Below the pieces are notes generated by a model. The model was not told the origin of the DNA. It saw nothing but the letters and a program-made list of their open reading frames with translations, and did not search any database. This document shows positions 32,316 through 36,181 of a stretch of 64,000 nt of DNA, in pieces. The DNA is from Escherichia coli (GTDB taxonomy: Bacteria > Pseudomonadota > Gammaproteobacteria > Enterobacterales > Enterobacteriaceae): the NCBI RefSeq assembly GCF_030013595.1, contig NZ_CP122768.1; one strand, 5' to 3'. Position numbers and translations under genes: made by a program. Position 1 is the first letter of the stretch. Every line of letters begins with the position of its first letter.

Positions 32316-33867
32316 TTGGATTTTCAGCGTGGCGCAGGCAGGTTTTATCTTAACCCGACACTGGCGGGATACCCCGCAAGGAACCGAAGTTTCCTTTTGG
32401 TTAGCGACGGACAACGGGCCGTTGCAGGTTACGCTTGCACCGCAAGAGTCCGTGGCCTTTATTCCCGCCGATCAGGTTCCCCGCGCTCAGCATATTTTGC
32501 AGGGTGAACAAGGCTTTCGCCTGACGCCGCTGGCGTTAAAAGATTTTCACCGCCAACCGGTGTATGGCCTTTACTGTCGCGCCCATCGCCAGTTGATGAA
32601 TTACGAAAAGCGCCTGCGTGAAGGTGGCGTTACCGTCTACGAGGCCGATGTGCGCCCGCCAGAACGCTATCTGATGGAGCGGTTTATCACCTCTCCGGTG
32701 TGGGTCGAGGGTGATATGCGCAATGGCGCTATCGTTAATGCCCGTCTGAAACCGCATCCCGACTACCGTCCGCCGCTCAAGTGGGTTTCTATTGATATTG
32801 AAACCACCCGCCACGGTGAGCTGTACTGCATCGGCCTGGAAGGTTGCGGGCAGCGCATCGTTTATATGCTGGGGCCAGAGAATGGCGACGCCTCCGCGCT
32901 CGATTTTGAACTGGAATACGTCGCCAGTCGCCCGCAGCTACTGGAAAAACTCAACGCCTGGTTTGCGACTCACGATCCCGATGTGATCATCGGCTGGAAC
33001 GTGGTGCAATTCGATCTACGAATGCTGCAAAAACATGCCGAGCGTTCTCGTATTCCGCTGCGGCTGGGGCGCGATAACAGTGAGCTGGAGTGGCGCGAGC
33101 ACGGCTTTAAAAACGGCGTCTTTTTTGCCCAGGCCAAAGGGCGACTGATTATCGACGGTATCGAGGCGCTGAAATCCGCGTTCTGGAATTTCTCTTCATT
33201 CTCGCTGGAAACCGTCGCTCAGGAGTTATTAGGCGAAGGAAAATCTATCGATAACCCGTGGGATCGGATGGACGAAATTGACCGCCGTTTCGCCGAAGAT
33301 AAACCTGCGCTGGCAACTTATAACCTGAAAGATTGCGAGCTGGTGACGCAGATCTTCCACAAAACTGAAATCATGCCATTTTTACTCGAACGAGCGACGG
33401 TGAACGGCCTGCCGGTGGATCGGCACGGCGGTTCGGTGGCAGCGTTTGGTCATCTCTATTTTCCGCGAATGCATCGCGCTGGTTATGTCGCGCCTAATCT
33501 CGGCGAAGTGCCGCCACACGCCAGCCCTGGCGGCTATGTGATGGATTCGCGGCCAGGGCTTTATGATTCGGTACTGGTGCTGGACTACAAAAGCCTGTAC
33601 CCGTCGATCATCCGCACCTTTCTGATTGATCCCGTCGGGCTGGTGGAAGGCATGGCGCAGCCTGATCCAGAGCACAGCACCGAAGGTTTTCTCGATGCCT
33701 GGTTCTCGCGGGAGAAACATTGCCTGCCGGAGATTGTGACTAACATCTGGCACGGGCGCGATGAAGCCAAACGTCAGGGTAATAAGCCGCTTTCGCAGGC
33801 GCTGAAGATCATTATGAATGCCTTTTATGGCGTGCTTGGCACCACCGCCTGCCGCTTCTTCGATCCG

Positions 33868-33876
33868 CGCCTGGCG
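33868..33876. repeat. IS10 target-site duplication, left copy (CGCCTGGCG)
   Basis: Identical 9-mer at 35206..35214 directly flanking the IS10 termini. Confidence 0.93.
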
Positions 33877-33921
33877 CTGATGAATCCCCTAATGATTTTT
33901 ATCAAAATCATTAAGTTAAGG

Positions 33922-33991
33922 TAGATACACATCTTGTCATATGATCAAATGGTTTCGCCAAAAATCAATAATCAGACAACAAAATGTGCGA
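33922..33991 (-). ncRNA. IS10 RNA-OUT antisense RNA (position inferred from known IS10 architecture)
   Basis: Known IS10 layout places pOUT transcript antisense to the transposase start region; not independently verifiable here. Confidence 0.4.
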
Positions 33992-35192
33992 ACTCGATAT
34001 TTTACACGACTCTCTTTACCAATTCTGCCCCGAATTACACTTAAAACGACTCAACAGCTTAACGTTGGCTTGCCACGCCTTACTTGACTGTAAAACTCTC
34101 ACTCTTACCGAACTTGGCCGTAACCTGCCAACCAAAGCGAGAACAAAACATAACATCAAACGAATCGACCGATTGTTAGGTAATCGTCACCTCCACAAAG
34201 AGCGACTCGCTGTATACCGTTGGCATGCTAGCTTTATCTGTTCGGGCAATACGATGCCCATTGTACTTGTTGACTGGTCTGATATCCGTGAGCAAAAACG
34301 GCTTATGGTATTGCGAGCTTCAGTCGCACTACACGGTCGTTCTGTTACTCTTTATGAGAAAGCGTTCCCGCTTTCAGAGCAATGTTCAAAGAAAGCTCAT
34401 GACCAATTTCTAGCCGACCTTGCGAGCATTCTACCGAGTAACACCACACCGCTCATTGTCAGTGATGCTGGCTTTAAAGTGCCATGGTATAAATCCGTTG
34501 AGAAGCTGGGTTGGTACTGGTTAAGTCGAGTAAGAGGAAAAGTACAATATGCAGACCTAGGAGCGGAAAACTGGAAACCTATCAGCAACTTACATGATAT
34601 GTCATCTAGTCACTCAAAGACTTTAGGCTATAAGAGGCTGACTAAAAGCAATCCAATCTCATGCCAAATTCTATTGTATAAATCTCGCTCTAAAGGCCGA
34701 AAAAATCAGCGCTCGACACGGACTCATTGTCACCACCCGTCACCTAAAATCTACTCAGCGTCGGCAAAGGAGCCATGGATTCTAGCAACTAACTTACCTG
34801 TTGAAATTCGAACACCCAAACAACTTGTTAATATCTATTCGAAGCGAATGCAGATTGAAGAAACCTTCCGAGACTTGAAAAGTCCTGCCTACGGACTAGG
34901 CCTACGCCATAGCCGAACGAGCAGCTCAGAGCGTTTTGATATCATGCTGCTAATCGCCCTGATGCTTCAACTAACATGTTGGCTTGCGGGCGTTCATGCT
35001 CAGAAACAAGGTTGGGACAAGCACTTCCAGGCTAACACAGTCAGAAATCGAAACGTACTCTCAACAGTTCGCTTAGGCATGGAAGTTTTGCGGCATTCTG
35101 GCTACACAATAACAAGGGAAGACTCACTCGTGGCTGCAACCCTGCTTACTCAAAATCTATTCACACATGGTTACGTTTTGGGGAAATTATGA
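33984..35192 (+). CDS. IS10 transposase (402 aa)
   Basis: MCELDILHDSLYQFCPELHLKRLNSLTLACHALLDCKTLTLTELGRNLPTKARTKHNIKRIDRLLGNRHL... matches IS10/Tn10 transposase. Confidence 0.96.
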   Translation: MCELDILHDSLYQFCPELHLKRLNSLTLACHALLDCKTLTLTELGRNLPTKARTKHNIKRIDRLLGNRHLHKERLAVYRWHASFICSGNTMPIVLVDWSDIREQKRLMVLRASVALHGRSVTLYEKAFPLSEQCSKKAHDQFLADLASILPSNTTPLIVSDAGFKVPWYKSVEKLGWYWLSRVRGKVQYADLGAENWKPISNLHDMSSSHSKTLGYKRLTKSNPISCQILLYKSRSKGRKNQRSTRTHCHHPSPKIYSASAKEPWILATNLPVEIRTPKQLVNIYSKRMQIEETFRDLKSPAYGLGLRHSRTSSSERFDIMLLIALMLQLTCWLAGVHAQKQGWDKHFQANTVRNRNVLSTVRLGMEVLRHSGYTITREDSLVAATLLTQNLFTHGYVLGKL

Positions 35193-35205
35193 GGGGATCT
35201 CTCAG

Positions 35206-35214
35206 CGCCTGGCG
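35206..35214. repeat. IS10 target-site duplication, right copy (CGCCTGGCG)
   Basis: See left copy; encodes duplicated PolB residues RLA. Confidence 0.93.
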
Positions 35215-36181
35215 TCGTCGATCACCATGCGTGGTCATCAGATCATGCGGCAAACCAAAGCGTTGATTGAAGCGCAGGGCTACGACGTGATCTACGGCGA
35301 TACCGACTCAACGTTTGTCTGGTTGAAAGGCGCACATTCGGAAGAAGAAGCGGCGAAAATTGGTCGTGCACTGGTGCAGCACGTTAACGCCTGGTGGGCA
35401 GAAACGCTGCAAAAACAACGACTGACCAGCGCACTGGAACTGGAGTATGAAACCCATTTCTGCCGTTTTCTGATGCCAACCATTCGCGGAGCCGATACCG
35501 GCAGTAAAAAGCGTTATGCCGGGCTGATTCAGGAGGGCGATAAACAGCGGATGGTGTTTAAAGGGCTGGAAACCGTGCGCACCGACTGGACGCCGCTGGC
35601 CCAGCAGTTTCAGCAGGAGCTGTACCTGCGTATCTTCCGCAACGAGCCATATCAGGAGTACGTCCGCGAAACCATCGACAAACTGATGGCGGGTGAACTG
35701 GATGCGCGGCTGGTTTACCGTAAACGCCTTCGCCGTCCGCTGAGCGAATATCAGCGTAATGTTCCGCCTCATGTACGCGCCGCTCGCCTTGCCGATGAAG
35801 AAAACCAAAAGCGCGGTCGCCCCTTGCAATATCAGAACCGCGGCACCATTAAGTACGTATGGACCACCAACGGCCCGGAGCCGCTGGACTACCAACGTTC
35901 ACCACTGGATTACGAACACTATCTGACCCGCCAGCTACAACCCGTGGCGGAGGGAATACTCCCTTTTATTGAGGATAATTTTGCTACACTTATGACCGGG
36001 CAACTTGGGCTATTTTGAGCAAAAAAAGAGTTCGCCAGATACCATTTTGATGCGTGACGAATGCTTTGCCATCCAGTACCATAGCGCCCTTTCCATTCCT
36101 GGACCTGAATAACACCACTACCTCATAAGCACGGTAGCGGGTGGTTATTGCCTGCAATTAAAGATATAGAGCCGAACACAT

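Follow-up and report, generated by a model that had tools for sequence, protein, structure and literature searches.

Does the Escherichia coli chromosome of assembly GCF_030013595.1 still encode a functional DNA polymerase II (Pol II)? The question is raised by a 64,000-nucleotide stretch of contig NZ_CP122768.1 (hereafter the window), in which polB, the gene for Pol II, is interrupted by a copy of the insertion sequence (IS) IS10. A previous sequence-only reading of this DNA had proposed that the element separates the exonuclease/N-terminal region of PolB from the catalytic motif C (YGDTDS) and that the strain lacks Pol II. Our analysis leads to a similar answer: a recent IS10 insertion has very probably produced a loss-of-function polB allele, with no Pol II activity.

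A complete IS10 in polB

The local gene order on the plus strand is araA, araD, polB, rapA and rluA. The identity of polB is borne out by its sequence, by its LexA box and by its position between araD and rapA, a gene order shared with the annotated relative. The features that make up the interrupted gene are the following.

32258..32273, plus strand: LexA (SOS) box CTGTATAAAACCACAG, a CTG-N10-CAG match upstream of polB
32329..33924, plus strand: chimeric 5' open reading frame (ORF) of 531 residues with a GTG start, consisting of PolB 1-516 (32329-33876) and 15 IS-encoded residues, ending in a TAG stop
33868..33876, no strand: left target-site duplication CGCCTGGCG, codons R514-L515-A516
33877..35205, plus strand: the interrupting element, a complete IS10 of 1329 bp, of the IS10-Left sequence type
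33984..35192, plus strand (the strand of polB): IS10 transposase ORF of 402 residues, from the ORF list and a domain match
35206..35214, no strand: right target-site duplication CGCCTGGCG, from the direct-repeat match
35167..36018, plus strand: mechanical 3' ORF of 283 residues, consisting of 13 IS residues (MVTFWGNYEGISQ), RLA from the duplication, and PolB 517-783
35215..36018, plus strand: true polB 3' remnant, in the reading frame of the rejoined gene

Over its 1329 bp the element at 33877-35205 is 100% identical to the gltS (jemA)-side IS10 of Tn10 on plasmid R100, and the same full-length identity is found with many plasmid-borne copies. The tetD-side copy of R100 (IS10-Right) differs from it at 15 nucleotides (98.9% identity), with six differences in IS nucleotides 24-107, three in nucleotides 410-903, six in nucleotides 1249-1300 and none between 903 and 1249. 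The transposase ORF matches PF01609 DDE_Tnp_1 (E = 1.5e-24), and its product differs from the IS10-Right transposase of R100 at four residues (266, 381, 389 and 398). The element starts with CTGATGAATCCCCTAATG and ends with GGGGATCTCTCAG. Its outside end (CTGATGAATCCCC...) and inside end (CTGAGAGATCCCC...) form imperfect terminal inverted repeats, in which 17 of the first 23 positions match by hand count. The outside end (nucleotide 1) faces the 5' part of polB, and the inside end (nucleotide 1329) faces the 3' part and rapA. GATC sites are located at IS nucleotides 67 and 1320. Length and identity, terminal inverted repeats, a 9-bp target duplication and a single long DDE transposase ORF all agree with IS10, which belongs to the IS4 family and is named 'IS4-like element ISVsa5 family' by the Prokaryotic Genome Annotation Pipeline (PGAP). 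The copy thus shares with IS10-Left of Tn10 (R100) the same 1329 bp, the 402-residue DDE transposase and the 9-bp target duplication, at 100% identity. Unlike that arm of a composite transposon, it is a solo element inside a chromosomal gene; neither tet genes nor a second IS10 copy were found within the 64-kb window.

The sequence CGCCTGGCG flanks the IS as a perfect 9-bp direct repeat (33868-33876 and 35206-35214). This target fits the relaxed IS10 consensus NRCNNNGYN fully and the classical consensus NGCTNAGCN at four of its six specified positions, keeping the outer GC/GC pairs of the latter (both consensus sequences from PMC4574204). A 9-bp duplication together with exact ends is the signature of cut-and-paste IS10 transposition, which speaks against an assembly mis-join, and full identity to a known IS over 1329 bp, combined with a perfect target duplication, makes chance implausible. 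An assembly artefact was rejected on the same exact ends and perfect duplication.

Joining 32329-33876 to 35215-36018, that is, removing the IS and one copy of the duplication, restores an unbroken polB of 783 codons, which differs from the polB of the nearest relative by only three nucleotides and two residues. Because the rejoined ORF is unbroken and near-identical to that of the relative, the IS is the sole inactivating lesion in a polB that is otherwise undecayed. We also considered an old, decaying pseudogene and rejected it, since the rejoined ORF is perfect and polB is intact in near-identical relatives.

What each fragment keeps

PolB 1-516 aligns end to end and without gaps with the crystallised E. 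coli Pol II chain 1q8i_A, which is also matched by residues 403-624 of the rejoined protein. In the rejoined protein the exonuclease-side motifs are found at positions 156 (DIET), 224 (NVVQFD) and 331 (YNLKDC), the polymerase motifs at 419 (motif A, DYKSLYPS), 493 (motif B, KIIMNAFYG) and 543 (motif C, YGDTDS), and the C-terminal motifs at 614 (KKRYAG) and 779 (the terminal QLGLF). The 5' product contains the DNApolII_N, insertion and exonuclease domains as well as polymerase motifs A and B. Motif C, the remaining polymerase domain and the C-terminal QLGLF lie 3' of the IS and are set apart from the 5' frame by 1338 bp. Pfam matches show that the break does not coincide with the boundary between exonuclease and polymerase. 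It cuts the DNA_pol_B domain (453 profile positions) at position 177, leaving positions 22-177 in the 5' product and 177-440 in the 3' ORF. No single polypeptide of about 783 residues with all of these motifs is encoded, as the motifs are split over two ORFs.

The description of the two fragments in the sequence-only reading is therefore largely upheld. A 5' fragment of residues 1-516 with a 15-residue IS tail was recovered from the ORF list, with residues 1-516 also seen in the alignment to 1q8i_A, and DVIYGDTDS does lie in the 3' fragment. The IS does separate the N-terminal region from motif C, but to call the 5' part the exonuclease/N-terminal region is too narrow, as this part also keeps motifs A and B. 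On the 3' side, the absence of an own start codon was also found to hold: there is no ATG, GTG or TTG at the junction between the IS and the polB 3' part. From 35113 the frame runs through the junction without a stop, and the ATG at 35167, inside the inside end of the IS, is in frame with the polB 3' part, as had been noted. The PolB part of this ORF (35167-36018) holds YGDTDS, KKRYAG and the C-terminal QLGLF.

Age and distribution of the allele

The closest complete genomes are HCP5S3_I2 and LCP30S3_I5, both from UK pig faeces, with virtually identical flanks. Both have an intact polB (in HCP5S3_I2 according to its annotation) and neither carries the IS10/polB junction. Over ~62.7 kb the window and HCP5S3_I2 are colinear on both sides of the IS10 and differ by ~22 single-nucleotide polymorphisms (SNPs), by two small indels (a 15-bp repeat unit in espY1 and 1 bp in ccdA), by one IS2 present only in HCP5S3_I2 and by the IS10, present only in the window. 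This copy moved recently, since relatives only ~0.035% divergent lack the insertion.

The IS2 of HCP5S3_I2 (1331 bp) corresponds to window position ~22605-22609, between espY2 (21891-22460, minus strand) and the thiB leader. The two near-identical strains are thus set apart by IS insertions that arose independently, one in each, a sign that insertion sequences are actively moving in the lineage.

In a junction-spanning megablast search of 5426 complete E. coli genomes, no locus matched the query over 80% or more of its length. Similarly, the exact junction strings were absent from the GTDB species representatives, the exact patterns of either junction were absent from metagenome contigs, and an exact look-up of both chimeric proteins in the gene-position index gave no match. 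No relevant paper came up in a literature search on polB and IS10. In 5400 of the 5426 complete genomes at least 80% of polB is present, and the gene was one unbroken piece in all of 60 evenly sampled rows. Judged from these sequence comparisons, the insertion is recent and private to the strain, and it affects a gene that is rarely absent from E. coli. The other 26 complete genomes had no polB match at all.

The allele is best explained by a single recent transposition, in which an autonomous-type IS10 (the IS10-Left variant) entered the chromosomal polB at codon 516/517 in a pig-associated E. coli lineage. Solo copies identical to this one were also found on other chromosomes of E. coli and on plasmids from a wide range of genera, and the variant is evidently mobile as a solo element in wild strains. 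IS10 copies in two unrelated natural E. coli genomes (NZ_CP006834.2 and NZ_CP103623.1) are listed over rpoS-annotated features.

Predicted consequence for Pol II

The polB gene (dinA) is regulated by LexA (Lewis et al. 1992). Since the LexA box is intact, the truncated 5' product should stay damage-inducible; the promoter would then drive a 531-residue protein with the N-terminal domain, the 3'-5' exonuclease, motifs A and B and the 15-residue tail. The 5' frame stops 15 codons into the IS, so full-length Pol II cannot be made. The insertion almost certainly inactivates Pol II, and a Pol II-null allele appears to be the best reading of the locus; we infer that no DNA polymerase II activity would be left in the cell. 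The proposal that the strain lacks Pol II is supported to this extent, by a 5' frame that stops within the IS and by the separation of motif C and QLGLF from it.

Some points weigh against this reading. In the classical literature IS10-Left is the poorly active copy of Tn10, which makes its apparent autonomous move slightly unexpected. An IS10 copy at a different site in the genome may have mobilised it. The loss of activity is deduced from sequence only. Finally, family-B polymerases can work as two non-covalent pieces (PMC3061061), which would make the loss of activity less than certain if the 3' part were translated.

The allele resembles the engineered and classical polB nulls of K-12 in that the same LexA-regulated, non-essential family-B polymerase gene is disrupted. 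It differs from them in being spontaneous, in a non-K-12 lineage with pig isolates as its closest sequenced relatives, in leaving behind an SOS-inducible, exonuclease-containing fragment of 516 residues, and in being revertible in principle through precise excision between the 9-bp repeats. The polB gene is dispensable and engineered K-12 polB nulls have mild phenotypes, which are expected here likewise. As Pol II is a dispensable accessory/translesion polymerase, the literature would lead one to expect only mild, condition-specific phenotypes. Pol II is an accessory, SOS-induced polymerase that reaches the replisome via a clamp-binding motif (PMC12448304).

Transcription out of the IS10

Whether the separated 3' part of polB, or rapA beyond it, is transcribed from the element depends on the following features.

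33922..33950, plus strand: pIN-like transposase promoter TAGATA-N17-TCAAAT, from a pattern scan; the dam GATC at IS nucleotide 67 overlaps the -10 hexamer
33999..34004, minus strand: TAAAAT at the position expected for the pOUT -10 (IS nucleotides 123-128), read from the sequence
34876..35106, plus strand: segment reported to hold pIII and OUTIIp (IS10 nucleotides ~1000-1230)
36182..39088, plus strand: rapA, 968 residues, the next gene downstream, 163 bp past the polB stop and intact

The site at 33922..33950 is presumably pIN, and the TAAAAT at 33999..34004 is a candidate for the exact -10 hexamer of pOUT. The pOUT promoter lies within the first ~100 bp of IS10 and points outward (PMC9330008). 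In this insertion that strong promoter faces back through the polB 5' fragment, in antisense, with rapA behind it, so it cannot drive the 3' remnant or rapA. Promoter activity has been reported at both IS10 ends (PMC4574204), and pIII and OUTIIp have been placed within IS10 nucleotides ~1000-1230, reading out through the inside end (PMC11481808). As the corresponding segment (34876..35106) is identical to IS10-Right, some transcription into the polB 3' remnant is plausible. A sigma-70 consensus scan of 32200-36300 found no site, and the single hit of a relaxed scan of 34800-35260 was TTCACA-N17-GAAATT at 35160-35188 (8 of 12 positions), outside the published pIII/OUTIIp segment. With no consensus-like site in these scans, the case for inside-end promoters comes from the literature and not from the sequence. 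Toward the polB 3' remnant and rapA there would be only weak promoters (pIN, pIII and OUTIIp) or read-through.

In known cases of IS10 driving its neighbours (the pSU cat-promoter insertions, IS10L in a mevalonate operon and the OUTIIp study) the element has the same inside-end-to-gene orientation. The present case differs from these in that the downstream sequence is a remnant without its own start codon or ribosome-binding site, and in that selection for expression of the remnant is not evident. For rapA, comparison with HCP5S3_I2 revealed one SNP in the gene (36818) and none in the intergenic region 36019-36181; the gene is expected to depend mainly on its own untouched upstream region.

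Alternative explanations

That the allele is unique among everything searched, and that near-identical sister genomes have an intact polB, would also be seen if the IS10 had hopped during laboratory storage or culture, were present in a subpopulation only, or were an artefact of assembly, and so were not a feature of the natural population. We regard this as unlikely: exact IS ends and a perfect 9-bp duplication denote a real transposition and not a repeat mis-join, and on either side of the element the sequence is colinear with that of the relative.

A second possibility is that Pol II survives in two pieces, residues 1-516 and a C-fragment of ~30 kDa, with residual or altered activity, or that a free C-fragment competes at the beta clamp and perturbs polymerase traffic. 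Such a fragment would carry motif C, the remaining polymerase domain and the C-terminal QLGLF. It would be made from pIII/OUTIIp transcripts or from polB/pIN read-through, starting at the ATG at 35167, at Met521 (35227) or at Met526 (35245). The sequence-only reading had allowed for a C-terminal fragment made by outward transcription and the ATG at 35167. The transcriptional half of that suggestion finds backing in the reported inside-end promoter activity (PMC4574204, PMC11481808), whose segment is unchanged in the present copy, and the reading frame is open from 35113 over the junction into polB. There are also family-B precedents of tolerated splits: Pfu polymerase remains fully active when split at 467/468 and can be rebuilt from fragments that were made separately, T4-like gp43 genes with a split in the fingers exist in nature, and Mth PolB has its split in the palm, ~83 residues further on (all PMC3061061). 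By an approximate mapping through motif anchoring, the present break lies ~10 residues past the fingers, between the Pfu and Mth split positions.

It is at translation of the second piece that the two-piece arrangement becomes very improbable. The ATG at 35167 has no Shine-Dalgarno (SD) sequence, with an anti-SD energy of +2.2 kcal/mol against -5 to -8.5 for leuC, leuD, araD and caiAB, which are well-expressed genes of the window, and pairing at Met521 and Met526 is weak (-1.5 and -2.2, respectively). The only good SD-like sequence, GAGGGG (35191-35196, -8.5), precedes a CTG, and the ATG at 35167 and both internal ATGs lie in hairpins of the predicted centroid fold. The GTG at 35287 has a better value (-4.6) but is only two codons before YGDTDS. 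No canonical in-frame start with a usable SD was found at or before Met526, and no consensus-like sigma-70 site in the region. In addition, foreign residues would be present at the interface, a hydrophobic tail of 15 residues on the N-fragment and 13 residues on the C-fragment. The C-fragment alone, without motifs A and B, could not polymerise, so that any activity would need reassembly with the N-fragment. The split arrangement is kept in 0 of the 5426 complete E. coli genomes, with no sign of selection. The polymerase domain here is divided between motif B and motif C, in the region of the functional splits known from Mth PolB, T4-like gp43 and split Pfu polymerase (PMC3061061), but those consist of two properly initiated ORFs, whereas the second piece here is without a credible start, both new ends carry foreign residues, and the arrangement is not conserved across related genomes.

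It is scarcely credible that the IS10 has become coupled to the SOS response, with the LexA-controlled polB promoter reading into the transposase gene and DNA damage raising transposase levels and mobility: the LexA box, the polB 5' fragment and the transposase ORF are co-oriented with nothing between them, but the transposase start has no SD, RNA-OUT antisense control is still in place, and folding of a read-through transcript gives a prediction, weak by itself (z-score -1.5), that upstream IS sequence pairs with the transposase AUG (33984). Such pairing fits the fold-back inhibition that Davis, Simons and Kleckner reportedly described in 1985, which is said to block activation of IS10 by external promoters. 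A Pol II-null allele created by recent transposition is the reading that we retain.

Other differences from the closest genome

The chromosomal ccdA gene (49372-49604, minus strand) has a 1-bp deletion in a G run at ~49510-49512 relative to the closest genome. The resulting frameshift gives a product of 59 residues in place of 77, and the adjacent ccdB toxin ORF (49055-49369, minus strand) is intact. Possible causes are an error in sequencing the homopolymer and a true loss of the antitoxin beside an intact toxin. The type III secretion system effector gene espY1 (40167-40943, minus strand) has one extra 15-bp in-frame tandem-repeat unit, GGTAGCACCGTCCAC, at 40296-40310 relative to the same genome. 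Between rluA and espY1 (39970-40150), the relative is annotated with a short, frameshifted 'transposase DNA-binding-containing protein' remnant, which appears to be an old IS scar beside the espY1 islet.

Significance

Knockouts of dispensable genes by an IS are ordinary, and this polB allele, though new, is of that familiar kind and matters little beyond the annotation of the strain. That annotation should read as a polB pseudogene interrupted by IS10 and not as two hypothetical proteins. The isolate would be a naturally Pol II-deficient E. coli, a condition uncommon among complete genomes, and it may be of use as a natural background in which to study the roles of Pol II in damage tolerance, stationary-phase fitness and mutation spectra.

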